Of a DNA stretch of 64,000 nt, positions 50,107 through 64,000 are shown one piece after another; positions within the stretch are counted from its first letter, which is position 1; each line of letters begins with the position of its first letter. Source of the stretch: Nitrososphaerota archaeon (GTDB lineage Archaea; Thermoproteota; Nitrososphaeria_A; Caldarchaeales; Caldarchaeaceae); the NCBI GenBank assembly GCA_041641305.1, contig JBEPYN010000001.1, forward strand, positions 787,183-851,182, in the 5' to 3' direction. Below the pieces are notes generated by a model. The model searched no databases. It had not been told where the DNA came from and worked only from the letters and a program-made list of their open reading frames with translations. The translations under genes were made by a program, and so were the position numbers.

Positions 50107-51522
50107 TTAGAAGAGTTCTTGTAGGGTGTATTGTCTTGGGTCTGTTATTTTTCCCGTCAACGCTGTGGCCGCTGCGACGAGTGGGCTTGCGAGATGTGTG
50201 CGGCCTCCGACGCCTTGTCTGTTCTCGAAGTTGCGGTTGCTTGTCGAGAGACATCTCTCGCCAGGTCTCAGCCTATCTTCGTTCATCGCGATGCACATGC
50301 TGCATCCGCTGTTCCGCCACTCAAACCCAGCCTCCAAAAATATCCTATGCAGACCCATGCGCTCCGCCCTCCGCTTCGTCAACTGCGAACCAGGCACAAC
50401 AAGAACCCTCACACCATAAGCCTTTCTCCTACCCTTCACAAGCCTCGCCACATCAATCAAATCACTCAGCCGAGCGTTGGTGCATGAGCCGATAAACACC
50501 GTATCCACCCTGATGTCGGAAACCTTCATCCCAGGCTCAAGACCCATATACTGAAGAGCCCGCTCAACCGCTTTTCTATCGGCGGGGTCGTCAAAGTCAT
50601 CGGGAGAGGGCACGTTCTCCGTCACACCCACCGTCATGGCGGGGTTCGTTCCCCACGTCACCTGCGGCTCAATACGAGACACATCAAACGTGTGAACCGT
50701 GTCATATTTTGCGCCAGGGTCAGTCTTCAGCGTCCGCCAATACTCAACAGCCTCATCCCATTCACGGCCTTTCGGGCTATAGGGCGCGTCCTTGAGAAAG
50801 TTGAAAACTTTTTCATCGGGTTCTATGATGGCTGTCCGTGCACCGCCCTCGATGGACATGTTTGTCAACGTCATCCTCTCTTCGACGCCGATGTTCTTGA
50901 CGTAGTCGCCTGTGAACTCGACGACGTGTCCAATGCATCCACCCGTGCCAAGGGTTCTGATGATGTAGAGGATGACGTCCTTGGCTGTTACGCCTTCTCC
51001 ATCCTTCCCCGTGAGCCTGATGTTCATCTGCTTCGGCTTCTTGAGCCAGAGCGTCTGCGTCGCGAGAACATGCTCTCCCTCGCTTGTTCCAATACCGAAA
51101 GCAAGCGCTCCAAAAGCCCCATGCGTCGATGTGTGGCTGTCTCCGCAGACAAGCGTTATGCCTGGAATAGTGAGGCCCAGCTCAGGCCCGATCACGTGGA
51201 CGATGCCCTGAAAAGGGCTGAAGTAGTCGAACAAAGTAATGCCGAATTCTCTTGCGTTGCGGCTGAGGGCCTGCATCTGCGCAGCCGACATAGGCTCTCT
51301 GACGGGCTCGAGCCTATCACCTGTCGGAACGTTGTGGTCCATCACCGCGAAAGTCAGGTCAGGCCTACGCACTCTACGGCCCGCGGCCCTCAACCCCTCG
51401 AAGGCAAGCGGCGAAGTAACCTCATGCGTCAGATGCCTATCGATGTAGAGCAGCGTCTGCCCATCCTCCCTCTCCGCAAGAGCATGACTGTTCCAAATCT
51501 TCTCAAACACCGTGTAGCCCAT
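50107..51522 (-). CDS. leuC: 3-isopropylmalate dehydratase large subunit
   Basis: HEVTSP, DHNVPT, CGDSHTSTHGAFG, IGSCTN, CSMC, STSNRNF. Confidence 0.97.
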   Translation of the reverse strand: MGYTVFEKIWNSHALAEREDGQTLLYIDRHLTHEVTSPLAFEGLRAAGRRVRRPDLTFAVMDHNVPTGDRLEPVREPMSAAQMQALSRNAREFGITLFDYFSPFQGIVHVIGPELGLTIPGITLVCGDSHTSTHGAFGALAFGIGTSEGEHVLATQTLWLKKPKQMNIRLTGKDGEGVTAKDVILYIIRTLGTGGCIGHVVEFTGDYVKNIGVEERMTLTNMSIEGGARTAIIEPDEKVFNFLKDAPYSPKGREWDEAVEYWRTLKTDPGAKYDTVHTFDVSRIEPQVTWGTNPAMTVGVTENVPSPDDFDDPADRKAVERALQYMGLEPGMKVSDIRVDTVFIGSCTNARLSDLIDVARLVKGRRKAYGVRVLVVPGSQLTKRRAERMGLHRIFLEAGFEWRNSGCSMCIAMNEDRLRPGERCLSTSNRNFENRQGVGGRTHLASPLVAAATALTGKITDPRQYTLQELF

Positions 51523-51567: not shown

Positions 51568-52377
51568 TCACAGCCGTTGCCACATAAGCCTGACAACCAT
51601 CAAATCCTGAGCCGGGACCTCGACACGCCACACGATCTCCGCACCGTTTCGCGCAGTAAACTCAACAACCCCGCCAAGCCTCCGCAGCACATACTCGTAG
51701 ACACCTGAGGCGGTCACCGCGTCTTCGCCGCTTCTACGGGGCGTGGCCCAGTAAAACCTCTCCAGCACACGCTCAGGCTCCTCCATCGGCTTCTCCTCAA
51801 TTTCCCGCAGCGCTTCGCGGAGCACGGGCCTTGGGAGAGGATAGCTGTCAAGAGCCTCGACGACACGTTTCTTCTTCTCAGGCTCCAGACGGGTCTTCTC
51901 AACCATGGCAAGCGTCGTCGCCGGAACCATGCGCCCCAACGGGCCCAGCCTCGCCGCACGCCGCAAAGTGTAGAACCATGACTTGGAGACCCCTAGAAAC
52001 CTGCAAACCTCCTCAACACTTGGAAAAACCTCCTCCGCGACAAGCCGCTCAACATAGAGAACCAGCTCCGACTCCGTCAAATCATCTTGGCTAAAGTGAA
52101 TGGCGAGAGAAAGCCGTGGAGCATCTTCTCCGCCATCTATTATGCAGGGGACTTTCTCGAGCCCGGCTTCAACGGCTGCCGCGAGCCGTCTGCTCCCATC
52201 CAAAACCTCGTAACAATCATCCACCGGGTGGACGAGCAGGGGCTCCATGACGCCGTTTCTCCTGATGCTTTCGACGAGGATTCTGTGGCGGTCGGGGTCG
52301 TGGACCATGCGTGGGTTGTAGCGGCTTTTCCGAAGACGCCATGTCTCGACGTAGACTATATCGGGCACGGTCTTCAC
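51568..52377 (-). CDS. ParB/Srx N-terminal domain protein with HTH
   Basis: YNPR..LVESIRRNGVMEPLLV..YEVLDGSRRLAA. Confidence 0.88.
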   Translation of the reverse strand: MKTVPDIVYVETWRLRKSRYNPRMVHDPDRHRILVESIRRNGVMEPLLVHPVDDCYEVLDGSRRLAAAVEAGLEKVPCIIDGGEDAPRLSLAIHFSQDDLTESELVLYVERLVAEEVFPSVEEVCRFLGVSKSWFYTLRRAARLGPLGRMVPATTLAMVEKTRLEPEKKKRVVEALDSYPLPRPVLREALREIEEKPMEEPERVLERFYWATPRRSGEDAVTASGVYEYVLRRLGGVVEFTARNGAEIVWRVEVPAQDLMVVRLMWQRL

Positions 52378-52655
52378 CTTCTACGGTAGATGAGGAGGGG
52401 CTTGGATGGGTCGGCGACCTCAAGCGTCCACCATGGCGTGGCAAATGTCTGCGAGGCGGCGAACCGTTGAATCGCAAGTGTTAGGATGGATTTTCCACGC
52501 CTGTTCTCCCTGTTGAGCAGCATCCTCAGCTCACCTCTGCCAACAACCATTTCCTTCAACCCCTTCTCCTCAGCCACTTTCTCCAACGCCTCACCCACAC
52601 GGAGAATCGTCTCCAAAGCCTTTGTCTTCGAAAACATCTTAGGCATCAAACCCAC
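52374..52655 (-). CDS. Hypothetical protein
   Basis: Overlaps neighbouring starts and stops in operon fashion. Confidence 0.6.
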   Translation of the reverse strand: MGLMPKMFSKTKALETILRVGEALEKVAEEKGLKEMVVGRGELRMLLNRENRRGKSILTLAIQRFAASQTFATPWWTLEVADPSKPLLIYRRR

Positions 52656-52806
52656 CTCTCATAACCTCTCGAAGAAGCAGACGAAGATAAACCGAAACAG
52701 GTATACCATGTTTATCAGCTCCCGCGCAAAGCCAGCGATAGATGTCGGGTGGAAGCCTCAGCGTCATCCGCTTAACCTCATCCCCGAGAGCATTTTTACG
52801 CGGCAC
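52639..52806 (-). CDS. Ribbon-helix-helix DNA-binding protein
   Basis: MTLRLPPDIYRWL..A.KHGIPVSVYLRLLL; start estimated at GTG 52806. Confidence 0.75.
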   Translation of the reverse strand: MPRKNALGDEVKRMTLRLPPDIYRWLCAGADKHGIPVSVYLRLLLREVMRGGFDA

Positions 52807-52929
52807 CTCCGAGACACCTCTTACATTCAGCAGCTGCACGAAAAAGGTGCTCTATCCGCACTTTCGGACACCTCACATCGATATATGCAGGCATCATGGA
52901 GAGAACCCGAGGGTGGAGGGATAAAAAAG

Positions 52930-53433
52930 ATGGGGGAAACTGAGTCAACAACGGCTCATAGAAGAGTCTCGTATGAGTCTTCAACCAAGCATGGGAAAAC
53001 ATATTGTACGGTGAAGATTCCCGCGGCTCTCGCAGAGGCTATCGACAGTTATTTGATGGAGCATGAGGCTCAGGTTCGTGGGCTTAAGAGTAGGGCGGAT
53101 GTTGTTGTGCGTGTTTTGACGGAGTTTTTGGAGGAGCAGGGGCGGCTGAGGCCCTTGGTTAAGCGGAGGCTTGAGCACGTCAACGTCTATGAGTCGTTTG
53201 TTCTCGTGCGGGACAATCTGTTGAATGTTTCTGTCGAGGTCGCGGTGCAGCCTCCTCGGCTCTTCTGCCGCTACTGCGTGAGCGGGGAATGTGTCCACGT
53301 ATCGTTTGCGGCCTCGATACCTGATGTGAGGCGGAGGTTCGCTGAGCTGGGTTTCAGGGCCCCTGAAACTGGTGAGGATGTGGGCGGCTATGTGGTGTTT
53401 TTCGACGGCGTCGCATATCCCTATACTGAGTGA
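52930..53433 (+). CDS. RHH regulator with C-terminal Zn-finger (CxxCx4CxH)
   Basis: TVKIPAALAEAID..SRADVV; CRYCVSGECVH; ATG 52930 follows a G-rich RBS. Confidence 0.75.
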   Translation: MGETESTTAHRRVSYESSTKHGKTYCTVKIPAALAEAIDSYLMEHEAQVRGLKSRADVVVRVLTEFLEEQGRLRPLVKRRLEHVNVYESFVLVRDNLLNVSVEVAVQPPRLFCRYCVSGECVHVSFAASIPDVRRRFAELGFRAPETGEDVGGYVVFFDGVAYPYTE

Positions 53434-53460
53434 TTTAATCATGGATGATTCTGTGGTGGT

Positions 53461-54909
53461 GTGGCTGTTTTCCGTGTTCCCGTTGTCTTCGCCGACTATG
53501 TTGAGGACCGTGGCCTTGGCTTCGCTGGGTTAAGGACGCGGGTTACACGGGTTTTCGGCGGTGTTGTGAAGCGTTCTCGGCGTGTGGGCGAGGTTGCTTC
53601 GTTGATGGGTCTTGGGCTTGAGGATGTTGTGATGCCTGTTTTCCTCGAGGCCGTGGTCGAGGTGGAGAAAGGTGACGTGGTATATGTCACGGGCGAGAGC
53701 GGCGGCGGAAAATCTCTGCTGCTACGCCACCTCGCCGACGAGATGAGCCGCCTGGACGAATTCGCACCCGTAGCATGTTCGTGGAAAATCTTGGATAATG
53801 TTCCACGCAGCAGGCCTTTGATAGACTGTGTGGGAAAGGATGTCCATGAGGCTGTGGAGATTTTGTCGGCCGCGGGTCTCAGCGATGTCTACACTTGGTT
53901 GAGGTCTTTTGACGAGTTGAGCGATGGGCAGAGGATGAGGTTCATTTTTGCGAAGGCTCTTGACGCGGGTGCCAAGACGGTTGTTCTTGACGAGTTTTGC
54001 TCGGCCCTTGACAGAGAGACCGCTAAGGCTACGGCTTACACGATGCAGAAGCTCGCCCGCCGCCGAGGCATCACATTCATCGCAGCGACGGCTGTGGATG
54101 ATTTGTGCGAGGACCTTAACCCCAGCCTCCTCATAGTTAAACACATGGGGCCTCATCTCGTCGTGAAACGCCTCGACCCCGTGCCCCGGCCCTGCAGCCT
54201 TCTCGAGAAGATTGTTGTGGAGGAGGGGTCTGTGGAGGATTGGCGTCTCCTCTCTTTTCTCCATTACCGTAGCCATCGAGTAGCCGCGCCTGTGAAGATT
54301 TTCCGCGCGGTCTTGAATGGCAGGGTTGTCGGAGTGGTTGTGTATTCTAAGCCGTATCTCCAAGCTTCTGGGTTTGCGCGGTTTTTCAAGCATGAGTGGT
54401 ATCGACGCTGGAGGATGAGCCATGTTCTCCGCATTCAGAGGGTTGTCGTGCATCCGAGCTTCAGGGGAATAGGTGTGGCACGAAAACTCTTGACAGAGTC
54501 TCTGCCGCGTCTCGGCGTCCCGTTTGTTGAGATACTCAGCGCGATGGAGAAGCTGATACCGTTTACACGAGGCATCATGACAAGGTGGACGGTTGTAGAG
54601 CCGAGCAAAGAGAAAAAGGCCCTGCTCGAGGAGTTTCGGCGAAGATTCGGCATAGACGTGATGAGGTATGGTGTGGCGGATGTTCTCCACTATGCGGAGA
54701 AGAGGGGCCTTCTCAGAGGGATGAGAAGCTGGCTGCTCGCCAACCGCCACAGATACTGTGACACATCTCTGGGACAAGTGGATGTGGCTAAGTTGCTGCG
54801 GACACTCAAGTCATCATGTGCGACAAAAGTTTATGGACTGTGGATAAATCCTGAGAAAAAATTTGGAAAAATTGTGGAGGAGGCTATGGCTGCTCAACGA
54901 GATCTCTGA
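53461..54909 (+). CDS. ABC-type ATPase fused to GNAT acetyltransferase
   Basis: GESGGGKS, LSDGQ, VVLDEF; HYR; RVVVHPSFRGIGVA. Confidence 0.88.
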   Translation: MAVFRVPVVFADYVEDRGLGFAGLRTRVTRVFGGVVKRSRRVGEVASLMGLGLEDVVMPVFLEAVVEVEKGDVVYVTGESGGGKSLLLRHLADEMSRLDEFAPVACSWKILDNVPRSRPLIDCVGKDVHEAVEILSAAGLSDVYTWLRSFDELSDGQRMRFIFAKALDAGAKTVVLDEFCSALDRETAKATAYTMQKLARRRGITFIAATAVDDLCEDLNPSLLIVKHMGPHLVVKRLDPVPRPCSLLEKIVVEEGSVEDWRLLSFLHYRSHRVAAPVKIFRAVLNGRVVGVVVYSKPYLQASGFARFFKHEWYRRWRMSHVLRIQRVVVHPSFRGIGVARKLLTESLPRLGVPFVEILSAMEKLIPFTRGIMTRWTVVEPSKEKKALLEEFRRRFGIDVMRYGVADVLHYAEKRGLLRGMRSWLLANRHRYCDTSLGQVDVAKLLRTLKSSCATKVYGLWINPEKKFGKIVEEAMAAQRDL

Positions 54910-55369
54910 GGAGTGTGGAGAGGTCTTTCTCCTCGGTTGATGAGCCGATTTTCTCGAGGGCGATGATGATGTCTTTTGTTTTGGATATGACTTCGAGCCG
55001 TGCTTTGGCGAGTGTGAGGATGTCGCGTGCAGAGGCTCCGCTGCTCATCTTCTCCTCGGTAACCGTCTCAAGCTCCCGGTGAATTCTCAGCAGGCTTTTC
55101 AACAGCTTCTCCAGCATCTCTGCAGCGGTCTCCGGCGTCTCCTCAGCCGCCGCACCCATCAGCCTATACATCGAAGCCGTTTTTCTCGCTGTGGCGAGAC
55201 GTTTCAGGGTTTTCCCCATTCTGTGTATGATGATTGTTGACATGAGGGCTGCGGCTGCTGCGACAAGTGCGAGATATGAGCCGACGTCGATGTAGCCGAG
55301 TAGGAAGAGAATTGTTGAGACTATGGTGAGCGTTTTTGCGATGTAGTCGAGTGTTTCGGCTGTGTTCAT
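54884..55369 (-). CDS. Hypothetical protein, 2 TM plus helical C-terminus
   Basis: ATG 55369 overlaps the upstream stop (ATGA). Confidence 0.65.
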   Translation of the reverse strand: MNTAETLDYIAKTLTIVSTILFLLGYIDVGSYLALVAAAAALMSTIIIHRMGKTLKRLATARKTASMYRLMGAAAEETPETAAEMLEKLLKSLLRIHRELETVTEEKMSSGASARDILTLAKARLEVISKTKDIIIALEKIGSSTEEKDLSTLLRDLVEQP

Positions 55370-55785
55370 GTCCGCAGGGCCTCGAGTGTGCTGATTACGT
55401 AGGTGATGTAGGAGCTGAGGCCGAGGAGTGTGGCGGCTGTTGCGGCGGCGTTGTTGGATTTGCTGACTGCGAGCGATTCGGCGATGATGCGTATGAGGAG
55501 GTAGGTGTTGGCTGCGAAGAGCAGGATTGTCTGGAAGGTGTCGAGGATGTTGGCGATGTTTATGGCTGTTGAGATGAAGGATGCGGCTGTCTGGACGCCG
55601 AGGGTGAGGTATGTGGCGCGTGTCTCCGTCCATCCTGCTTTTCTATAATGGATGGGTGTCAGGCCCGTGGCTACGATGAAGGTGGTCGCCGAGGCGATTA
55701 GAAGAAGCAGCTTCATGGAAGTGGTTGTGTGTAGAGCTGTGGCGAAGAGTAGTGTGGCCGCCGCTGCGAATAAGAGCTTTCTCAT
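55366..55785 (-). CDS. Multi-TM membrane protein
   Basis: Hydrophobic; coupled to the portal stop. Confidence 0.7.
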   Translation of the reverse strand: MRKLLFAAAATLLFATALHTTTSMKLLLLIASATTFIVATGLTPIHYRKAGWTETRATYLTLGVQTAASFISTAINIANILDTFQTILLFAANTYLLIRIIAESLAVSKSNNAAATAATLLGLSSYITYVISTLEALRT

Positions 55786-56849
55786 GGCTTTTCGCCACCT
55801 GTTGTGCCGAGGCCCATGGCTCGCCGCGCCTCCTCAACCGTCTCTATACCAGCTCTCACACGCTCCACGTGTATCGATGTCTCCTGCTCCGGGTTTATCC
55901 ACTCAACCAGCCTAAACGAGAAGCCGTCCACACCTATGACCCGTTTAAGCGCAAGCGTCACAGAGGCGCCGAAAATTTTCTGCAGGGACTTGATGTATTG
56001 GGCGAAGGTTGTCATCTGGTTTCGGCTTGTCTCGAGGTTGAGGCCTTGGACCACGCCGTAGACGATGGGTGGCACGCGGAGGACGGCGAGGATGCGTTGC
56101 CGGAATTCTTCAAGCAGTTCGACGACGCGGAGGTCTTCGACTGGCTGGCTCAGGGTCTTGACATCGATGTCACCCATCAGAAGAAGGTTGTCTCCGGGAC
56201 GCGCCGACTCGAGAACAGCCTTCAGCCTGTTAAATGTTGTTTCGTCGCCGTGCTTCAGCACAATCACCTTCGACAACACACCTTTCCGCATGAAGACCTG
56301 GAAGAGGAAGAGCTCGGCTTCGCGTTTCGCCAAGAGAATGCGGGCCAGCGAGGCGAGCTTTGGTGTGCCGTAGGTTCTGTCGGCGAGAGGATGCAGAACA
56401 ACGTGGACAACCTCGTCGGGCGAGAACCTCACCAAACGCGTGGTCTGCTGAACATATCCTTTCACAACACCATACTCATCCCTGACAACCTGCATAGTCC
56501 ATGGAGCGATAACCCGTGGAAAATCCGAGACACACTCGATGTAGGATTCGTCGAAGATCAGCGTGGTCAGGATAAGGTTGCGGAGAAAGAAGAAGAAATC
56601 ATCTTCACGCGCCTGCAGCCACTCCTCAACGGTTTTTCTCGCGTTCTCCTCGCCGACAACATACCAGCCATTAGCCGTCACGGCGTCCACCACCGCGTCG
56701 AGACAAGCCCTGACATCTGTGTCACCCTCCGCAAGCTCAAGCAGCTTCAGCTGGTCAAGCGGCTTAGGCTCACCAAGTCTTCCGTAGAAGCTCGGCATAG
56801 TCGAGGCAAGGGCCTTTGGTCGGGAGAGGATTTTTCTGAAGAAGGCCAT
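55782..56849 (-). CDS. Phage portal protein (HK97-like)
   Basis: VRACLD.V, PWTMQVVRDEYG..GYVQ, FSPDEVVH, YGTPKL, ILAVLRVPP..G, TVEEARR.MG; start ATG 56849. Confidence 0.88.
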   Translation of the reverse strand: MAFFRKILSRPKALASTMPSFYGRLGEPKPLDQLKLLELAEGDTDVRACLDAVVDAVTANGWYVVGEENARKTVEEWLQAREDDFFFFLRNLILTTLIFDESYIECVSDFPRVIAPWTMQVVRDEYGVVKGYVQQTTRLVRFSPDEVVHVVLHPLADRTYGTPKLASLARILLAKREAELFLFQVFMRKGVLSKVIVLKHGDETTFNRLKAVLESARPGDNLLLMGDIDVKTLSQPVEDLRVVELLEEFRQRILAVLRVPPIVYGVVQGLNLETSRNQMTTFAQYIKSLQKIFGASVTLALKRVIGVDGFSFRLVEWINPEQETSIHVERVRAGIETVEEARRAMGLGTTGGEKP

Positions 56850-56871
56850 GGCGGAGACCGGGCCTTGTTTT

Positions 56872-56894
56872 CTTAATTCTCTCAGAGAATTAAG
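56872..56894. promoter_or_regulatory. Perfect palindrome CTTAATTCTCT-C-AGAGAATTAAG, candidate bidirectional promoter
   Basis: 11-bp arms; centre is 34 nt from each divergent ATG. Confidence 0.75.
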
Positions 56895-56916
56895 CCGAGA
56901 GTGCTTGGCTGTTGGC

Positions 56917-57168
56917 ATGGAGCTGGTCTACGCCTTCGCAGGCATCCTGCTCTACATTCTCAGCGGCTACCTGAAGAGCGCCGAGACATTCGACCCTTTG
57001 AAAGCTCTACGCACAGCTGTTGTCGGCGTGGCGGCTGTTGTGGCGAACATGGTTCTGGGTGTTGAGCTGCCCGCCCCCGAGCTCGAGACCCTGCTCACGG
57101 CGGGGGAGGTGACGTTCGTCGAGAACTTGGCGAAAACGCTGTGGAGAAGAGTGTTTTCAACGCTTTAG
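56917..57168 (+). CDS. Small membrane protein, holin-like
   Basis: Two TM helices, GYLK..E.FD..K, basic C-terminus. Confidence 0.55.
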   Translation: MELVYAFAGILLYILSGYLKSAETFDPLKALRTAVVGVAAVVANMVLGVELPAPELETLLTAGEVTFVENLAKTLWRRVFSTL

Positions 57169-57800
57169 CTCCGTGGCTCTGCTTGGATGCCGTGCGATGG
57201 ATAACATGCATAGAGGTTAGGCCCTGTCTCGAGAAAGCCCTTGACGACGAGGTTTTCGCAGGCTATCTGGAGGGCATAGCGGCAACACCTGACATAGACC
57301 TCGAGGGAGACGTCTTCTCGGAGGAGGTCTTCAAAGCCAACGCGGCCAACCTCATCGGCAAACCCATCCTACTCCAGCATGGCCGCAGCCAATCAGTCGG
57401 CGAACAACCCGTCGGACAAATCATCGACGCCAAGCACGTGCCCGGCAAAGGCCTCTGGATAAAGGCGGGCATCTACAAAGCTTTTGGAGACGTTTGGAGA
57501 ATGGTGAAAAACGGTTTTCTACGGTTTCTCAGCATAGGTGGATACGTGAAACGGGTCAGGTTCCGCGACAAAATCCGCGAAATCGAGGAAGCCGAGATAA
57601 CCGAGGTCTCTTTGACAGACCGAGCCGCAAACCCGAGGGCCCAGGTCATAACAGTTTTCTCGAAAAGCTGGGTTACATCGCCGAAATCCATCGTCTCGGG
57701 AAACGAGGCCATAGCCAAGCCGGCTGTGCAGGAGCTTGACACACCCTATTTCCGAAAATACTGGAGCAGGCTAAGTTCTCACCGAATTAAGCAGGAGTAG
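57141..57800 (+). CDS. HK97-type prohead protease
   Basis: GIAAT..D..GD, PILLQH, PVG, LSIGG, EITEVSL..AANP; true start may be 57192. Confidence 0.9.
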   Translation: MEKSVFNALAPWLCLDAVRWITCIEVRPCLEKALDDEVFAGYLEGIAATPDIDLEGDVFSEEVFKANAANLIGKPILLQHGRSQSVGEQPVGQIIDAKHVPGKGLWIKAGIYKAFGDVWRMVKNGFLRFLSIGGYVKRVRFRDKIREIEEAEITEVSLTDRAANPRAQVITVFSKSWVTSPKSIVSGNEAIAKPAVQELDTPYFRKYWSRLSSHRIKQE

Positions 57801-57804
57801 CGCC

Positions 57805-58767
57805 GTGTATGGTGCCATGAATTTTAGGGAAGCGCAGCAGGAATACCTCAGGTTCGGCAAAGCGCTGCTAAGCGGAGACAGCAACTTTCCAGAAATACCT
57901 CCAGCTGTTGCAAGCGATGTCTTCGACACCTTCATCGAGGAAAGCATAGCCGCCAAGATTTTCCGCTTCATCACCATGGGCTCCGACATCGTCAAGTTCT
58001 ACGTCAAGGGAGCTGCTCTCAATGTCTATGCGCCCACGGAGGCTTCGCCGGTTCCTGAGACGAAACTGACCTTTGAGCCGCCTGTTGTTCTCGAGGCACG
58101 TGAGGTGCGTGCGGTGAGCAGGATATCCGATGTAGCGGAGGAGGAGAGCGTGGTCGACCTCGTGGCTATGACGGTTGAGGACATGGCCCGCAGCATCGCC
58201 GACGCAGTTGATAAGAACGTTTTCCGAGGCATAGGCGACGGCTCAGACGTCTACAACCTGTTCACAGGTCTCCAGAGAAGCCACACCATAACAGGCAGCC
58301 AGACACAGACCCTCGACATCGGAAAAGCACCACTCACCGTTGAACACATCAACAAAGCCGTCGCAGCCCTCGAAGAACTCGGATACAGAGACGACCTAGT
58401 CATGATAATCCATCCAAAGACAGCCCTCCACCTCCGCAACGACCTCGCCTCAAAAGGCCTCGAAACAATAAGCGGAGACATCCTTCGGACAGGAGAGGTC
58501 AACGCAATCTTCGGTCTCAAAAAAGTCTACGTCACCACACATCTCGAGAAACGCAGCTACAGCGGCAGCGACGGGACCAAGGTAAGCGACGTAATAATCT
58601 GCAGCTCACGCGACGCCGGTGTAGGAGGATACAGGAGAACGCTGCGCATCGAGCGGGACAGAGATGTCGAAGCAGGGTTGACGAAGGTAGCTGCCAGCAT
58701 AAGGTTTGCATGGCGTATAACGAAGACCGACGCCATCTTCCTCATACAAAACGCCCTAGCCGAGTAA
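57805..58767 (+). CDS. HK97-fold major capsid protein
   Basis: IPP.V, E..P.PE..L.F, S..S, D...F.G.G, IIHP.T...L, IFG; follows the protease; alternative start 57817. Confidence 0.85.
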   Translation: MYGAMNFREAQQEYLRFGKALLSGDSNFPEIPPAVASDVFDTFIEESIAAKIFRFITMGSDIVKFYVKGAALNVYAPTEASPVPETKLTFEPPVVLEAREVRAVSRISDVAEEESVVDLVAMTVEDMARSIADAVDKNVFRGIGDGSDVYNLFTGLQRSHTITGSQTQTLDIGKAPLTVEHINKAVAALEELGYRDDLVMIIHPKTALHLRNDLASKGLETISGDILRTGEVNAIFGLKKVYVTTHLEKRSYSGSDGTKVSDVIICSSRDAGVGGYRRTLRIERDRDVEAGLTKVAASIRFAWRITKTDAIFLIQNALAE

Positions 58768-58803
58768 TCTGACCCCTATAACCCCACACCATTTTTCCCA
58801 ACC

Positions 58804-59625
58804 ATGCGCTATGTCTCGGTGAAAGATGTCCGTCTCTACAACGGCTGGCTACCCATCGAGGAAAGGAAACAGCCACTCAAGAAAATCGGGGAAACAGTGT
58901 TCCAAACTCCGCATGCGCCTCTCGTCGACGCCGACTGGGACGGCTCCGTCTACGACGATGTCCTGGTTTATCTCGACGGCGAACAGGTGGAGCCAGAGTC
59001 CATAGACCCGTCCACTGGCCTGGTCTCGATTAATCCACCGCCGTCGGAGAGCTCCACGGTTGAGGCGGATTATTTCTGGCACCCCATCGGGGACGAGGAT
59101 ATCATCCTCGCTGTGGAGGCTGCAGAGGGATTGGTTGAGGCCCTGACAGGTGTGGTGTATGTTCCGCATCAACGTGTTGAGAGACGGAGAATAGAGCGTA
59201 ACGGCTTGGTCACGTTGAGCGAACCCGTCATCGCCATACAGTCTGTCAAGCTCTACGACGGTTTCGGAAACTTTCTCGGAGAAGCTGAGGCGACGGTTGT
59301 TGACAAAGGTGCCGGTGTTTTGAAGATTCGTGTTGTCTCGCAGGAGCCTAGGCCTCCATGGTATCTGCCCAGCTATGTGGAGGCCGAGGTTGAATACGTC
59401 GGTGGACATGAGACGGTGCCCGCGACTGTTAAGCAAGCTGTTCTCGCCCTCTCCAGCCACAACCTGTTGACGCGTTTTCAGCAGAGGCTTTCTCTGGCCC
59501 CGGATTATGGTGGAGGTGTTTCGGCTGTGTTTGTCGCCGAGGACTTGGAGAAGAGGCTGCGTTTTCTCAGGAGCGAGGTGGAGAAGACGGTTAACAGTTT
59601 GCCGAGGAGGGTTGAGAAGGCTTGA
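58804..59625 (+). CDS. Head-tail adaptor-like protein with inserted beta domain
   Basis: YVSVKDVR, AE..VE..TG, VEY.GG...VP..VKQAV; follows the capsid gene. Confidence 0.65.
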   Translation: MRYVSVKDVRLYNGWLPIEERKQPLKKIGETVFQTPHAPLVDADWDGSVYDDVLVYLDGEQVEPESIDPSTGLVSINPPPSESSTVEADYFWHPIGDEDIILAVEAAEGLVEALTGVVYVPHQRVERRRIERNGLVTLSEPVIAIQSVKLYDGFGNFLGEAEATVVDKGAGVLKIRVVSQEPRPPWYLPSYVEAEVEYVGGHETVPATVKQAVLALSSHNLLTRFQQRLSLAPDYGGGVSAVFVAEDLEKRLRFLRSEVEKTVNSLPRRVEKA

Positions 59626-59990
59626 CATGGTTGACAAGTCTCGTGGAGCAGCTGGCCGAAACAATACGTCTCGGAGTAGGTGTTCCCGTATACGTTGGCT
59701 GGAGACCTGTCACAGCGCTTCCCATGGCCACGCTCCAGATAAGAAACTGCGAGATAACCCCGCTCGACCTCTCAGCAAACACCCACCTCATCACCGCCGA
59801 CGTCCAAATCGATTTCTGGCACAGCTCAGCGAAAGCATGCGACGAAACAGTAGAGAAAACCCTCGCAGCCCTCGAGCAGTCCCGCGACAGCCTCGGCATC
59901 TTTTTCCTCGGCGTGGAAGGCTTGGCCGACGTCGGCGACGAGAAAGCCTTCAGGAAAATGCTTCTCCTCAGGCTGAAGACGGTGAAGTAG
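59622..59990 (+). CDS. Tail completion/terminator-like protein
   Basis: VPVY..P, VQIDFW; size and position. Confidence 0.55.
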   Translation: MTWLTSLVEQLAETIRLGVGVPVYVGWRPVTALPMATLQIRNCEITPLDLSANTHLITADVQIDFWHSSAKACDETVEKTLAALEQSRDSLGIFFLGVEGLADVGDEKAFRKMLLLRLKTVK

Positions 59991-60302
59991 ATGTGCATAT
60001 TCCGGATAAGCCGCGGCAGAAAATACTACTGTGGAAAACGTTATCCTCTTCCCTGTTCGCCGAATGTCTGCCCCTTCGGCGACGTGCTGTGGCAGGGGCT
60101 TGTCAACCGGGACTACAAGCCGAGCCGCTACTGGGTGATGCCTTCGATGACGCATGTCGATTCGGCGGAGGAGGCGTGGCAAAGCCTCTCATCTGGAGAG
60201 GCGCTCTATGTCGTGAAGGAGATTGTCTACAGAGTTGGTGAAGGGGTTGGGACACGGGTTCGAAAAGGCTCTGAGCTTGGTGAAGTTTCCCGAGGTGGCT
60301 GA
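59991..60302 (+). CDS. Hypothetical Cys-containing protein
   Basis: C..C..CxxxxC N-terminus; abuts the upstream stop. Confidence 0.55.
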   Translation: MCIFRISRGRKYYCGKRYPLPCSPNVCPFGDVLWQGLVNRDYKPSRYWVMPSMTHVDSAEEAWQSLSSGEALYVVKEIVYRVGEGVGTRVRKGSELGEVSRGG

Positions 60303-61146
60303 CGAGTTCACGGGAGCGGGTGTGAGGGTGGTGTTCATCGACAGCGGCTGCAGCCCAGACCATCCCCTCAAAGACTGTGTAAACCTCACCGAAACCTCAC
60401 GCATCGACACCGAGTCGCACGGCGCATATGTCCACGCTGTTCTCGCAACCATGCTCCCCGACGCCGAGTTCTACCTCATCAAGGTCCCCGACCCGCTCAC
60501 CGACAACCTCCTGATAACAGCCCTCAGCGAAGCCAGCAGACTCTGCCCACACGTCATCAACCTCTCGATAACAAGCGAGATCCCCAGCGACGGCACAGAC
60601 CCCGCATCAACCTACGTAAACCACGTGGCGCGTAGAAGTGTTGTGGCCGTTGCTGCGGGAAACGGTGGGCCGAAGATGATGAGCATCGGCCCTCCCGCCG
60701 TTGCCGAGAACGCTTTGACGGTTGGCGCGGTTGATACACGTGGAAGGCTGTGGAAACGCTCGAGCAGGGGCCCCACACTTGACGGCCGCTGGAAACCCGA
60801 GATAGTGGCTCCGACAGGCTACAAGCCACCCAACTCAGGTGAAGAGGTCTGGGGCACAAGCTTCGCAGCACCCATAGCCGCGGCCATCGCAGCCCATCTC
60901 AACAAAAGACTCAACAACCCATACACAGCAACCCGGATAATGATGCTGACAGCCACGTCGGTGAACCTCATCCAAACACCTACGACAACGCTCACAGGCC
61001 TCCGCAAAGCAGCGCTGATAAGAAAACTCGTCGCAACATGGCCCAGAATATATGATCCGAGAAATCTGGCGGGAATGGGGCTGGTTGACGCCGCGGCAGC
61101 GGCCAATCTCATGAAGCAGCTCGCCCAAGCCTTCTCAACGCTATAA
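60223..61146 (+). CDS. S8 subtilisin-like serine protease
   Basis: FIDSG (Asp), SHG (His), AAGN, SSRGPT.DGR.KP, GTSFAAP (Ser). Confidence 0.92.
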   Translation: MSTELVKGLGHGFEKALSLVKFPEVADEFTGAGVRVVFIDSGCSPDHPLKDCVNLTETSRIDTESHGAYVHAVLATMLPDAEFYLIKVPDPLTDNLLITALSEASRLCPHVINLSITSEIPSDGTDPASTYVNHVARRSVVAVAAGNGGPKMMSIGPPAVAENALTVGAVDTRGRLWKRSSRGPTLDGRWKPEIVAPTGYKPPNSGEEVWGTSFAAPIAAAIAAHLNKRLNNPYTATRIMMLTATSVNLIQTPTTTLTGLRKAALIRKLVATWPRIYDPRNLAGMGLVDAAAAANLMKQLAQAFSTL

Positions 61147-61159
61147 AACCTCAGGAGAC

Positions 61160-62059
61160 ATGGATGCCATGGTTTTCCGTAAACTCGTAACATACGGCGA
61201 AGAAACCACCTACGGCCAAACACCTGCAGATGTTTCGCGGTGGATTGGAGGCGTCACATCCTTCAGCGGAGGTGTGGAGCCAGTAAGCGAGGAAGTCCCA
61301 ACACTCTCGGGCGCCAGAGTTTTCCAAACACTTGTCCACGGCCTCGACGTCTCACCAGGCATAGAATTCTACATCCAGAACCCGCGGATACTCAAGTACG
61401 CGTTCGGCAAAGTCACGGACACAGGCGCTTCACCGCCCTACACACATCTCCTCGAGATAAAGGAGGATTATGAGCTGGCGTCCATCACGTTGGTGGAGCA
61501 CCGCCTCGGAGCAGGGGGCCACGGCTACGTCTACAACGGATGCCGCGTCGACAAACTCACGCTCAGCTGGGAAGAGGACAGCTTTCTAAAAGCATCGATG
61601 GACCTCAGAGCCACAAAAGTCACCAAGACAACAACCCTGCCCACACCACAGGAGGAGATAAAGAGCTTCTACAGCTCCTCATCAAAAACCGTTGAGATAA
61701 ACGGTGTCGAGATAGGCTACGTTGTCTCAGGCTCTGTCACGCTCTCAAACAACACCTTCGCCTTTCCACGCCTCGGCGACTTCCATCAGAAACATGTGGC
61801 GGGAAACGCGCAGCTCGAAGCAGAGCTTGAGCTCTACTATCTCGACAGCAGCATCGTCGACCTGATGATTGGCAAGACAAGGTTTGACGTGAAGGTTAGG
61901 TTCAGCAGAGGCTCTGACGACTATCTCGAGGTTAGGCTTGAAGACTGTGTCTGCGGCGTTGAGGCGGTGTTGGAGGCGGAGGGTGAGATGATGCAGACGG
62001 TTTCGCTCAAGCCATCCAACATGAGCATCCTCGTGGCAGACGACGTGGAGGCCTACTGA
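61160..62059 (+). CDS. Tail tube protein
   Basis: YGEETTYG.TP, PYTH, SIT, YNGCRVDKLTL pattern of tail-tube proteins. Confidence 0.8.
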   Translation: MDAMVFRKLVTYGEETTYGQTPADVSRWIGGVTSFSGGVEPVSEEVPTLSGARVFQTLVHGLDVSPGIEFYIQNPRILKYAFGKVTDTGASPPYTHLLEIKEDYELASITLVEHRLGAGGHGYVYNGCRVDKLTLSWEEDSFLKASMDLRATKVTKTTTLPTPQEEIKSFYSSSSKTVEINGVEIGYVVSGSVTLSNNTFAFPRLGDFHQKHVAGNAQLEAELELYYLDSSIVDLMIGKTRFDVKVRFSRGSDDYLEVRLEDCVCGVEAVLEAEGEMMQTVSLKPSNMSILVADDVEAY

Positions 62060-62063
62060 GAAG

Positions 62064-62420
62064 ATGTCGACACCTGTTCCGCCGCCCGATGAGCTGAAGA
62101 GAAAAACCTCGCCAGCCGAGCTTTTCAAGAAGTTTGAGGAGGTTGAGGTCTTTGGCCACAGGTTCAGGATAAGGCGGATGACGCTTGCAGAGGAGCTGGA
62201 ATGGTACGGCGAGAGGGAGAAGATGCTTGCCGAGAACGGTTCTTCGCAGGCGGAGAAGTTGGCGAAGGTTTGGGAGAAGCTGCTGCAACGGGTTGTCGAG
62301 AGCCCGCGTCTCGAACGCTATGTTGACGAGCTGCCCACACCCGTGCTGGCCCGCCTCATACAAGCCATCACAGAGCTCCACCTCTGGAACATGGATTTTC
62401 GCAGCTCACCGCAGGCCTGA
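62064..62420 (+). CDS. Tail assembly chaperone (gpG-like)
   Basis: Follows tail tube; FRIRRMT; ends just after slippery GGATTTT. Confidence 0.75.
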   Translation: MSTPVPPPDELKRKTSPAELFKKFEEVEVFGHRFRIRRMTLAEELEWYGEREKMLAENGSSQAEKLAKVWEKLLQRVVESPRLERYVDELPTPVLARLIQAITELHLWNMDFRSSPQA

Positions 62421-62572
62421 GACTAAACCATGCATACACCTATTTTCTCCTCGCCGAGAAATACGGCTGGACACACAGCCAAATCCTTAACCTCACAAGA
62501 ACAGAGGCCCTCTACTACCTATTAGCACCTGTCGCCTATGAGAAGGAGAGGAGAAGGAGGAGGATAAAGTGA
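62399..62572 (+). CDS. -1 frameshift extension (gpT-like)
   Basis: Open -1 frame with no ATG: SQLTAGL..LAEKYGWTHSQILNLTRTEALYYL..; its stop overlaps the next GTG. Confidence 0.7.
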   Translation, partial: SQLTAGLRLNHAYTYFLLAEKYGWTHSQILNLTRTEALYYLLAPVAYEKERRRRRIK

Positions 62573-62886
62573 TTAGGGTTTTGGGGGTTGAGAGGGCTTT
62601 GCGCGGTTTGGCGAAATTCGGCGAAGACGCTGTGAAGCATGTGGAGAAAATGTTGGCCGCAGCTGCTGTGGAATGCATGGAGAGGGCGAGGGAGAGCGCG
62701 CCTGTGAGAACCGGCCGGCTGCGTGAAAGCATCACGGTCTCGAGACATGGTAGGCTGGCCTACGTCGTCGAAGCCTCAGCCCCCTACGCAGGCTACGTCG
62801 AGTTCGGGACATCGCGGCAGCGTCCACGCCGCTACATGCAGACAGCCCTCCTCCAAACACTCCAAACCCTCCGCAGACAGCTATAA
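62569..62886 (+). CDS. HK97 gp10-like tail/neck protein
   Basis: APVRTGRLRESI, YAGYVEFGT, PRRYM. Confidence 0.88.
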   Translation: MIRVLGVERALRGLAKFGEDAVKHVEKMLAAAAVECMERARESAPVRTGRLRESITVSRHGRLAYVVEASAPYAGYVEFGTSRQRPRRYMQTALLQTLQTLRRQL

Positions 62887-62927
62887 CCCCAACCAAGATA
62901 TATCAAACGCCGTGAAAAAGACTACCC

Positions 62928-63467
62928 ATGCGCGTAAGCCCCGTCACCATCCTCGCAGTCTTCATCATAGGATTTTTCGCCGGATACCTCGTCTTCAACA
63001 GCACCGCTCCACAGCCCCTAACAACCACAAAAACAGTAACAACAGCAACCACAATCCGCGAAACATCCACAACAACAATCACGTCAAGCCACAGGGTTGG
63101 CGGAAAACCTGTCGACCTCGTGGCAACCGTTTACAGAATAGTCGACGGCGACACCTTCGACGCCTTTCCATCTGGGCGTGTGAGGCTCGCGGACATCAAC
63201 ACACCAGAGAGAAACGAGCCCGGCTACAACGAGGCGAAGGAGGCGCTGCGCAGCCTCGTAGAAGGCAAACAAGTCTTCCTCGACGTGGATAACGTAAACG
63301 TGATGGACAGCTACCAGAGACTCGTGGCAGTTGTCTACGTGCAGCACAACAGCACACATGTTCTCAACGTCAACCTCTGGCTCGTCACAAACGGCTACGC
63401 AGCCTTCCGTGACTTCAACAACGAGTTCAACCCAGCGACATGGAGCCTCTACACACCGTTTAGCTGA
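62928..63467 (+). CDS. Membrane-anchored thermonuclease (SNase-like)
   Basis: TM plus Thr-rich linker; VDGDT, VRLADINTPE, D.Y.RLVA, LV.NGYA. Confidence 0.9.
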   Translation: MRVSPVTILAVFIIGFFAGYLVFNSTAPQPLTTTKTVTTATTIRETSTTTITSSHRVGGKPVDLVATVYRIVDGDTFDAFPSGRVRLADINTPERNEPGYNEAKEALRSLVEGKQVFLDVDNVNVMDSYQRLVAVVYVQHNSTHVLNVNLWLVTNGYAAFRDFNNEFNPATWSLYTPFS

Positions 63468-63728
63468 TCACCTGTGGAGAAGCCAGCCGAGAAGCACTCC
63501 GTCGAGAAACTCGGCCACCCTCCTCCGCTTCTTAGCTTTTTTCACAACCTCTTCCCTGCTTTCCTCACGTGAAACCTCGTAGCCGAGGATTTTCGGACGC
63601 AGAATGCTGAACTGTGTCTGGCACTCGAGGCACTCGAAGCTCTGCGGAATACCTGCCTCCACTTTTGCGGGGATTAGGTTTGTTCCCCTGCATATTGGGC
63701 ATGCGACGGTTATCTTGACCTCTTTCAC
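63468..63728 (-). CDS. Small Zn-ribbon protein
   Basis: CPIC..CLEC; hydrophobic C-terminus. Confidence 0.6.
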   Translation of the reverse strand: MKEVKITVACPICRGTNLIPAKVEAGIPQSFECLECQTQFSILRPKILGYEVSREESREEVVKKAKKRRRVAEFLDGVLLGWLLHR

Positions 63729-63797
63729 GGGGTTTGTTCCGATGCTTTGGAAATAAGCTTTGCGCGTCGACTGTTTCTCAACCTGATAACAGTATTG

Positions 63798-64000
63798 ATG
63801 AAGTGGGCCTCTGTGCCGCTTCCCAATTTTTCTGTGAAGGTTTTGCTTGAGGCCGAGGATAATTTGGCGAAGACGCTTGCGTATGCACGGGCTCAGTTGG
63901 AGAGTTTGGGTGACGTGGGTGTGCGCGAGGCTGGGAGGCTTGGGTCTGCTTTCGACGTTCTCGGCTCGGCGTTGAGCAGGGCGTTTGGCATAGCTTTCTA
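63798..64000 (+). CDS. Probable tape measure protein N-terminus (runs off window)
   Basis: Open frame ..FSVKVLLEAEDNLAKTL..GRLGSAF..; Ala/Gly-rich helical pattern and position. Confidence 0.5.
   Translation, partial: MKWASVPLPNFSVKVLLEAEDNLAKTLAYARAQLESLGDVGVREAGRLGSAFDVLGSALSRAFGIAF

Follow-up and report, generated by a model that had tools for sequence, protein, structure and literature searches.

The 64,000-nucleotide stretch analyzed here (the window) comes from contig JBEPYN010000001.1 of a Nitrososphaerota archaeon and runs, in its last part, into a cluster of tailed-virus genes that occupies 19.1 kb between leuC and a host aldo-keto reductase gene (AKR). The cluster is real and comprises a complete siphovirus-type gene set for head, tail, and DNA packaging, and its most likely mode is that of a domesticated particle system because selection has kept the particle-building gene set intact. 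The traits shown for the element are (i) its gene content, (ii) a fixed chromosomal locus, (iii) co-divergence with the flanking genes, (iv) purifying selection, (v) the absence of recombinase and replication genes, and (vi) recurrent deletions. That it is a domesticated particle system is a reading judged about equally liable to be right or wrong; under it, particles would be produced, DNA would be packaged in them, and that DNA would be transferred.

The host is a Candidatus Caldarchaeum, in line with an earlier sequence-only reading that had proposed a thermophile of the TACK group, and relatives of the capsid and of the large terminase (TerL) are found in metagenome-assembled genomes (MAGs) that bear this name (Aigarchaeota/Caldarchaeales). 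The same reading had offered two interpretations of the cluster, namely a new siphovirus-like provirus lineage or a domesticated particle system resembling a gene transfer agent (GTA). The lineage is not new. Judged by its described content and by the identity of its relatives, the element is the Caldarchaeum orthologue of CalSub-Pro, which was reported from Candidatus Caldiarchaeum subterraneum with an HK97 capsid, an S78 protease, a portal, a tail, a tape measure, an extra serine protease, and TerL (Krupovic et al. 2019, PMC6563490). That report gave only approximate borders, found att sites and replication genes missing, included no cross-species test, and already proposed that such loci are possibly domesticated and GTA-like (PMC6563490). 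Both the object and the GTA idea were therefore known, and no later paper in the library searched takes up the proposal for CalSub-Pro. What is added here is (i) the shared locus in the congeners examined, (ii) parity of synonymous divergence (dS) with the flanks in comparison with the closest relative, (iii) a ratio of nonsynonymous to synonymous divergence (dN/dS) of ~0.1, (iv) a 17-gene core in three families, and (v) deletion derivatives. The domesticated, GTA-like interpretation is the better fit of the two offered, given the fixed locus, the co-divergence with the flanks, and the purifying selection.

GTAs are known from bacteria and a few euryarchaea, and in TACK archaea they have been a published suspicion only. 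This suspicion is made concrete here by borders at leuC and AKR, a 17-gene core, vertical descent together with selection, and natural deletion mutants in sister species. If the element is a working GTA, it would be the first outside bacteria and euryarchaea and could explain the shuffling of alleles at the leuC-AKR locus. Should its particles carry host DNA, they would provide a mechanism for horizontal exchange in hot-spring archaeal populations.

Fixed locus, co-divergence, and purifying selection

The window forms the final 64 kb of contig C1 in a 1.66-Mb genome that is assembled in four contigs and 99.3% complete, and the element crosses from C1 into the next contig, C2. C1 and C2 overlap by 127 identical nt, the end of C1 recurring as the start of C2, and a 55.5-kb contig from a public run spans this join without difference; public runs were used as contigs, both for bridging the junction and for reading a TAA/TAC site described below. 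Positions beyond the window are given on L001 (C2:1-20000), for which the window position equals the L001 position + 63873. On the left, leuC (50107-51522, minus strand) adjoins the element across the gap of 45 nt that had been noted earlier, and on the right the element ends at AKR (L001:7063-7953), which is followed by ABC-2 transporter genes and PadR. Gene order was obtained from Pfam (at curated cut-offs), PHROGs, and NCBIfam searches.

In every cluster-holding Caldarchaeum genome, gene-by-gene tblastn searches find gene order and flanks unchanged. The left flank is leuC in L007, L010, and the deletion derivatives G004, G005, and G006, and the right flank is AKR, with ABC genes behind it on contigs that are long enough to show them, in L013, L014, L015, L017, L021, G005, G006, and G007. 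AKR also forms the right flank in a genome of a second genus (G012), as in Caldarchaeum. The capsid match is missing in six congeners, and the locus, inspected in four of them (G004-G007), carries a different deletion derivative in each. ParB through the adaptor is deleted in G004 and portal through chaperone in G006; G005 retains ParB, a fragment of the ribbon-helix-helix (RHH) gene, the staphylococcal nuclease (SNase) gene, and the tail of a fragmented TerL, and only broken TerL pieces are left in G007. In G003 and G008, TerL is missing besides the capsid. Patchy presence, which the sequence-only reading had named as part of what would count against a GTA, calls for care here: intact copies are patchy among species, but the missing ones have been lost by deletion at this very locus and leave no empty site.

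Relative to the MAG named Ca. C. subterraneum, the element genes mostly have dS values of 0.38-0.66 and the flank genes mostly 0.47-0.71. Real genes have dN/dS values of 0.04-0.26, with ~0.1 over ~6000 codons at a dS of ~0.5. Concatenated trees of the flanks and of the element share all supported pairs, (window, Tsub), (QQ1912_79, G004), and (QQ1709_146, G006), and the path between window and Tsub is 0.11 in both. In a test for relaxed selection, the tail genes of the head-deleted G004 show a dN/dS of 0.25 versus 0.16 for its flanks, at very little divergence. Within the genus and the family, the element is inherited vertically at a fixed locus, is under purifying selection, and lacks virus-like mobility, a combination that forms one part of the definition of a GTA; at greater depth, the loci differ and the modules are mosaic.

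An integrase, att site, or replication gene is found neither at the two edges of the element nor inside it, in agreement with what the sequence-only reading had seen at the left edge. Tyrosine (PF00589), SSV-type (PF16795), and serine (PF00239) recombinases and the rve transposase (PF00665) have no match anywhere in the genome. The two borders share no direct or inverted repeat of at least 10 nt, with 9-mers at chance level, and there is no tRNA anywhere in the window. No open reading frame (ORF) of the element contains a replication domain according to Pfam, PHROGs, and NCBIfam, a result that leaves room for a novel replication protein. Among the genes that had been sought downstream, the terminase is present, and integrase, att sites, and MCM are not. 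An excision-competent provirus would carry an integrase or transposase, att repeats at its borders, and its own replication module; none of these is recognized. A Mu-like transposable prophage was considered and rejected, there being no rve match in the genome and only a weak Portal_Mu match (26 bits) as a link. A XerA-like recombinase is likewise unseen, PF00589 giving zero matches genome-wide.

A CRISPR array of ~36 repeats (CTGATCCCGCAAGAGGGAATTGAAAG) occupies 47337-49950, immediately to the left of leuC, and two more arrays with the same repeat occur elsewhere in the genome. None of the 87 spacers in these three arrays matches the element or its relatives, either as DNA or as peptide. One "terminase-like" spacer (49527-49574) was dismissed, as it has only a generic Walker-B pattern in common with the element's TerL.

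The order-wide comparison covers 75 Caldarchaeales genomes, 74 besides that of the window. The capsid type occurs at an identity of at least 43% in 16 of the 74, and the TerL type, at an identity of at least 44%, in 9 of the 11 congeners and in six further genera. Seventeen core genes, including those for ParB, an RHH protein with a zinc motif (RHH-Zn), and an ABC ATPase fused to a GNAT acetyltransferase (ABC-GNAT), run without interruption in genomes of three families, the capsids of which share 41-57% identity with that of the window. Genus g13 has the arrangement protease-capsid ... TerL-portal ... RHH-ParB, and the portal block is inverted relative to this TerL-portal order in genomes of family f1 and genus g7; the 3′ end of ParB is the element edge in all three arrangements. 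Flanks are common to the species within g7 and to those within g13, and they differ between the groups.

Beyond the order, 35 capsid relatives in a collection of 5.8 billion proteins form one tight family, the named members of which are all Caldarchaeum, Nitrososphaerota, "Thaumarchaeota", or HR01 archaeon MAGs; many members of the family are on long contigs, tens to hundreds of kb in length (maximum 648 kb). A search of IMG/VR with the capsid alone gave no match, and a search with the alignment gave two contigs. Both carry relatives in a rearranged order and, in the stretches scanned, no integrase; in one of them, TerL-protease-capsid and the portal are divergent. INPHARED phages yielded one weak capsid match at 27% identity. 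Alphaproteobacterial TerL matches stand at 32-37% (L024-L026), and the L026 copy looks split.

Cellular genes are inserted between the gp10-like and SNase genes of three relatives (L008:9003-12092, L011:5034-6131, and L032:1158-4415), which amounts to chromosome-like behavior of the cluster. The inserted genes encode a Zn alcohol dehydrogenase, SCP2 proteins, a TPP enzyme, and an archaeal ATPase_2, which has an MCM_C-type winged helix and may account for the "Mcm" of the literature. An SSV-type integrase (PF16795) and a 612-aa AAA_25 helicase beside the relative in G048 (g13, L047:11612-14721) were not assigned to the element. This pair lies 4-6 kb beyond the protease end, is missing at the G049 edge, and is probably a separate neighboring element; the G046 contig ends before that edge. 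A 15-nt repeat at the G048 relative is treated as chance.

A second, distant terminase type (25-36% identity) occurs in all seven g6 genomes as well as in several further genera (among g8, g11, g12, g14, and g15), accompanied in g11, g12, and g15 by weak capsid matches (24-33%). It may represent another fixed head-tail element lineage in Caldarchaeales.

Proposed domestication and its alternatives

Domestication, as a GTA- or PBSX-like particle, is favored over a live temperate virus and a dead remnant because the element descends vertically at a fixed locus, has no mobility or replication gene, and is under strong purifying selection across its full particle and packaging set. The element would have entered the chromosome before the genus, and probably before the family, diversified, and would since have been inherited vertically between leuC and AKR with no recognizable means of excision, integration, or replication. 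Two divergent operons would be expressed by the cell from a palindromic intergenic region, and heads would be assembled. As the element has no way to make replicated copies of itself, the terminase would fill these heads from chromosomal DNA, with no excision beforehand. Tailed particles would then be released, and their DNA would be delivered or injected as by GTAs. In its most specific form, this proposal is of a working GTA of a TACK archaeon that is ancestral at least to the Caldarchaeum-holding family, is related to the fixed clusters in two other Caldarchaeales families, and moves chromosomal DNA between hot-spring cells; it is offered tentatively, with somewhat less than even confidence.

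Several observations weigh against domestication. Instead of signs of host control, the element has ParB and RHH regulators of its own, and no small terminase is recognized in it. Its composition is not fully host-like, contrary to what had been supposed from the sequence: GC content is 55.5% versus 51.9 ± 1.7% for the genome (98th percentile), and the tetranucleotide distance lies at the 96th percentile. Independent deletions in 4 of the 11 congeners and in one species of another family (G049) mark intact copies as dispensable. The elements of g5/L051 pair a g13-like capsid and TerL with an f1-like tube, S8 protease, or portal. The tree of the 621-aa tail protein (t621) is scrambled, and the protein is 35-46% identical among the other congeners; an orthologue of the variable 224-aa protein (t224) is found only in the closest relative and has been replaced in all others. 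To judge from these sequences, horizontal exchange has taken place between lineages at depth. Within the genus, the comparison of G006 with QQ1709_146 (L032/L033 versus L010/L017) gives a dS of ~1 for the element, 0.14-0.28 for leuC and AKR (0.14 for leuC), and 0.83 for another flank gene. The region is a mosaic of recombined segments between sister species, and alleles move by recombination, because the element dS of ~1 stands against 0.14 for leuC in this pair. The tape measure gene, moreover, contains an in-frame TAA (L001:126-128) exactly where the overlap of C1 and C2 stops, so the earlier statement that all genes are intact holds for most of them and fails for this one. Taken together, mosaicism, allele replacement, composition, and frequent deletions show that lineages have exchanged material in the past and that the cluster is not strictly needed.

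A rival reading is that of a still-active temperate virus, one that always re-enters the same site and relies on unrecognized or host-borrowed integration and replication, perhaps via ParB-HTH, RHH-Zn, and ABC-GNAT. The mosaicism of the head and tail modules, the tail-tip genes that are incongruent or replaced, the replacement of alleles inside the genus, and the atypical GC and tetranucleotide make-up all suit such a virus, as do the ParB 3′ end at the element edge in f1, g7, and g13, the two IMG/VR contigs with relatives, and the phage-typical ABC-GNAT gene. It is nevertheless considered unlikely. An active virus is difficult to reconcile with a genome in which none of four recombinase families is found and no att site is seen, with a dS equal to that of the flanks relative to the closest relative and identical branch lengths, or with a locus that is fixed in each genus examined. 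The cellular genes inside the cluster of otherwise intact relatives, the inversion of the portal block against the g13 terminase-portal order, and the failure of all 87 spacers to match the element or its relatives argue in the same direction. At the opposite extreme, an inert and decaying provirus remnant that is now functionless would account for the independent deletions in G004, G005, G006, G007, and G049, for the fragmented TerL of G005 and G007, and for the premature TAA in the tape measure of the window's assembly. Decay would not be expected to leave a dN/dS of ~0.1 over ~6000 codons at a dS of ~0.5, 17 genes intact across three families with capsids only 41-57% identical to the window's, or a conserved programmed frameshift site, and the TAA is absent in near-identical strains from three other studies. 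The remnant is the improbable end of the range.

The fixed locus, co-divergence, and purifying selection that point to domestication also agree with a PBSX-like defective-phage killer particle, that is, a domesticated weapon or lysis device against competitors in which random host DNA is packaged as a by-product with no productive transfer. The fast turnover of receptor-binding genes (t224 only in the closest relative, t621 at 35-46%) and the conservation of the S8 protease and the SNase nuclease in the tail module are consistent with a weapon. No toxin or lysis gene is recognized in the element, which has small membrane proteins only, and nothing in the sequence separates killing from transfer. 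A killer particle is rated as unlikely.

Gene map of the element

Gene calls were refined by per-frame dN/dS, with each ORF compared to the orthologous DNA of the closest relative. The portal, HK97-type protease, capsid, tail tube, and gp10-like genes named in the sequence-only reading are all borne out by Pfam matches above curated cut-offs (PF04860, PF04586, PF05065, PF18906, and PF04883), to which an S8 subtilase and an SNase are added; the adaptor and the G/GT chaperone are recovered as weak PHROG matches only.

The element edge in all three families is a gene for a ParB_N and HTH protein, here of 269 aa (51568..52377, minus strand; Pfam PF02195, 2e-14; PHROG ParB-like matches; dN/dS 0.10). 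Upstream of ParB, also on the minus strand, are small ORFs of 93 aa (52374-52655; dN/dS 0.12 versus the orthologous region) and 66 aa (52639-52839; dN/dS 0.21), the latter weakly RHH/CopG-like (Pfam CopG_antitoxin, 0.0065, below cut-off). Divergent from ParB is the RHH-Zn protein of ~150 aa (52981..53433, start approximate, plus strand; from sliding dN/dS), which combines a ribbon-helix-helix with a CxxC..CxH zinc motif. C96, C99, C104, and H106 are invariant in its alignment, and RHH_1 matches one orthologue at 6.6e-5. A 315-aa ORF at 52486-53433 is coding only in its last ~140-150 codons, and its 5′ part is non-coding in that frame. The ABC-GNAT fusion of 482 aa (53461..54909, plus strand; Pfam ABC_tran and Acetyltransf_1; phrog_11143, 8e-30) is conserved in all three families. 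The Atlas clusters that resemble it are mostly Uroviricota, and it is a phage-typical accessory gene.

The portal gene (55782..56849, minus strand; Pfam PF04860, 7.6e-17, 61.9 bits versus a cut-off of 39.1; dN/dS 0.09) starts with the ATG at 56849 and is divergent from the protease/capsid operon. Downstream of it, on the minus strand, lie genes for two small proteins of 139 aa (55366-55785) and ~165 aa (54884-55381), both delimited by sliding dN/dS, with predicted hydrophobic segments and conserved only within family f1. Between the divergent genes, a 67-nt intergenic region (56850..56916) contains a perfect 11-1-11 palindrome (56872-56894) and is the presumed, putative shared promoter/operator of the two operons. 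The first gene of the plus-strand operon encodes an 83-aa protein with hydrophobic segments (56917..57168) that has orthologues in f1 and g5. None of the three small hydrophobic-segment proteins around the portal has a family match, and they are possible candidates for egress or exclusion proteins.

The head genes continue on the plus strand with the S78 prohead serine protease (57141..57800; Pfam PF04586, 9e-7, 29.6 bits versus a cut-off of 21; dN/dS 0.11) and the HK97-type major capsid protein (57805..58767; Pfam PF05065, 2.5e-14, 53.8 bits versus a cut-off of 24.2; dN/dS 0.04). The capsid profile matches solved capsid proteins at 1e-7 to 2e-5; an AlphaFold model of the capsid built from 12 sequences reached a pLDDT of 54.5 and was not used for a fold search. 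A head-tail adaptor candidate of 273 aa follows (58804..59625; phrog_442 head-tail adaptor, 8e-8; dN/dS 0.11). Two small genes of 122 aa (59622-59990) and 103 aa (59991-60302), each with a dN/dS of 0.16 and orthologues in all families, probably encode connectors on the basis of their position. They replace a 244-aa ORF (59507-60241), which was discarded as spurious with a dN/dS of 1.59.

The tail module, likewise on the plus strand, opens with an S8 subtilisin-like serine protease (60223..61146; Pfam PF00082, 9e-28) that is conserved in every relative, followed by the tail tube (61160..62059; Pfam PF18906, 4.6e-36, 125 bits; dN/dS 0.09). The tail assembly chaperone (62064..62568; weak phrog_344 match, 0.0015) consists of a G part (62064-62420) and a -1 frameshift GT extension to 62568. 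The slippery GGATTTT near 62393 is conserved, as is the open -1 frame, for which comparison with the closest relative gives a dN/dS of 0.27, versus values of at least 1.0 in the other two frames; this pattern supports a programmed -1 frameshift that would give the G/GT form of the chaperone. Next are the HK97-gp10-like tail component (62569..62886; Pfam PF04883, 8e-15) and the SNase-like protein (62928..63467; Pfam PF00565, 1e-11), the latter found, among the relatives examined, within the genus only.

The tape measure, correctly named earlier (PF10145, 103 bits), has only its N-terminus, the first 84 codons, within the window (63747..64000, plus strand), and the rest lies at L001:246-2231. 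Read through from 63747, the gene has 785 codons. No interruption is seen in its orthologues, which measure 770-947 aa and carry Tyr where the TAA stands. The probable source run reads A at this codon, and three runs from other studies, with near-identical strains, read TAC; the TAA is a strain-level change and may be a polymorphism in the source sample. The element continues with t621 (L001:2228-4093), t224 (L001:4090-4764), a 184-aa S74-type fibre protein (t184, L001:4768-5322), and TerL (L001:5490-6809; Terminase_6N 64.5 bits, Terminase_6C 36.5 bits; phrog_2, 1e-51). The candidacy of t184 as the small terminase was rejected, as a Peptidase_S74-type fibre chaperone domain is present in 4 of its 12 orthologues. 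An HK97-fold head-tail module is thereby represented by its capsid, its portal, a TerL with ATPase and nuclease domains, and a long non-contractile tail set; no sheath protein is found in the element.

Overlaps of 127 nt also join the start of C1 to the start of C3 (reverse complement) and the end of C3 to C4 (reverse complement), and all four contigs can probably be chained by their end overlaps.

Relation to known systems

The closest counterpart is CalSub-Pro, with which the element shares the host genus, an S78 protease just upstream of the capsid, and the lack of att sites and replication genes. Its capsid is 96-97% and its TerL 90% identical to those of congeneric genomes, including the MAG named Ca. 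C. subterraneum. The window copy differs in coming from another strain or species, with ~87% nucleotide identity to the named MAG, and in carrying the tape measure TAA. The thaumarchaeal Nvie-Pro1 and NCAV2-Pro1 are also chromosomal head-tail clusters of TACK archaea without att sites or replication genes; unlike the Caldarchaeum element, they have the protease fused to the capsid protein and are highly divergent, deriving from different viruses (PMC6563490).

"Prophage regions" of Caldarchaeales MAGs have been described with terminase, portal, capsid, prohead protease, subtilisin, staphylococcal nuclease, and ParB genes, and were read as Mu-like prophages with auxiliary metabolic genes (Balbay et al. 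2023, PMC10547907). The gene kinds match those of the Caldarchaeum element, which differs in having no transposase or integrase and in that the ABC transporter genes lie outside it as conserved host flank. The ABC-2/DrrA-type transporter genes (L001:7950-9817) adjoin the element and are present as host flank in all congeners, carriers of deletions included; prophage-prediction tools may pull them into "prophage regions" as auxiliary genes. Two readings in the literature are corrected in this way, that of the neighboring ABC transporter genes as virus-borne auxiliaries and that of the elements as Mu-like prophages.

In Bacillus, PBSX is a head-tail cluster that lacks an integrase and has a fixed place in the chromosome. 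Defective prophages of the PBSX type in Bacillus subtilis resemble the Caldarchaeum element in being chromosomally fixed, non-excising head-tail clusters that are conserved among related species, and the element, like them, would package host DNA. PBSX differs in its contractile tail and its known lysis and regulatory genes, and it has no homology to the Caldarchaeum element.

GTAs are said to have been defined by Lang et al. in 2012 as particles that contain random host DNA in pieces smaller than the encoding cluster, transfer it to recipients, and are produced under host control. GTA genes reportedly have a higher GC content than the host genome. Compared with the RcGTA type of Alphaproteobacteria, the Caldarchaeum element has no sequence kinship beyond shared HK97-type folds, places TerL at the far end, and has an inverted portal. 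It also carries its own ParB/RHH regulators, S8 protease, nuclease, and ABC-GNAT, and has no recognized small terminase. What the two have in common is a head-tail cluster of 15-20 kb without integrase or replication genes, held at a fixed locus, inherited vertically under purifying selection, and often lost or truncated.

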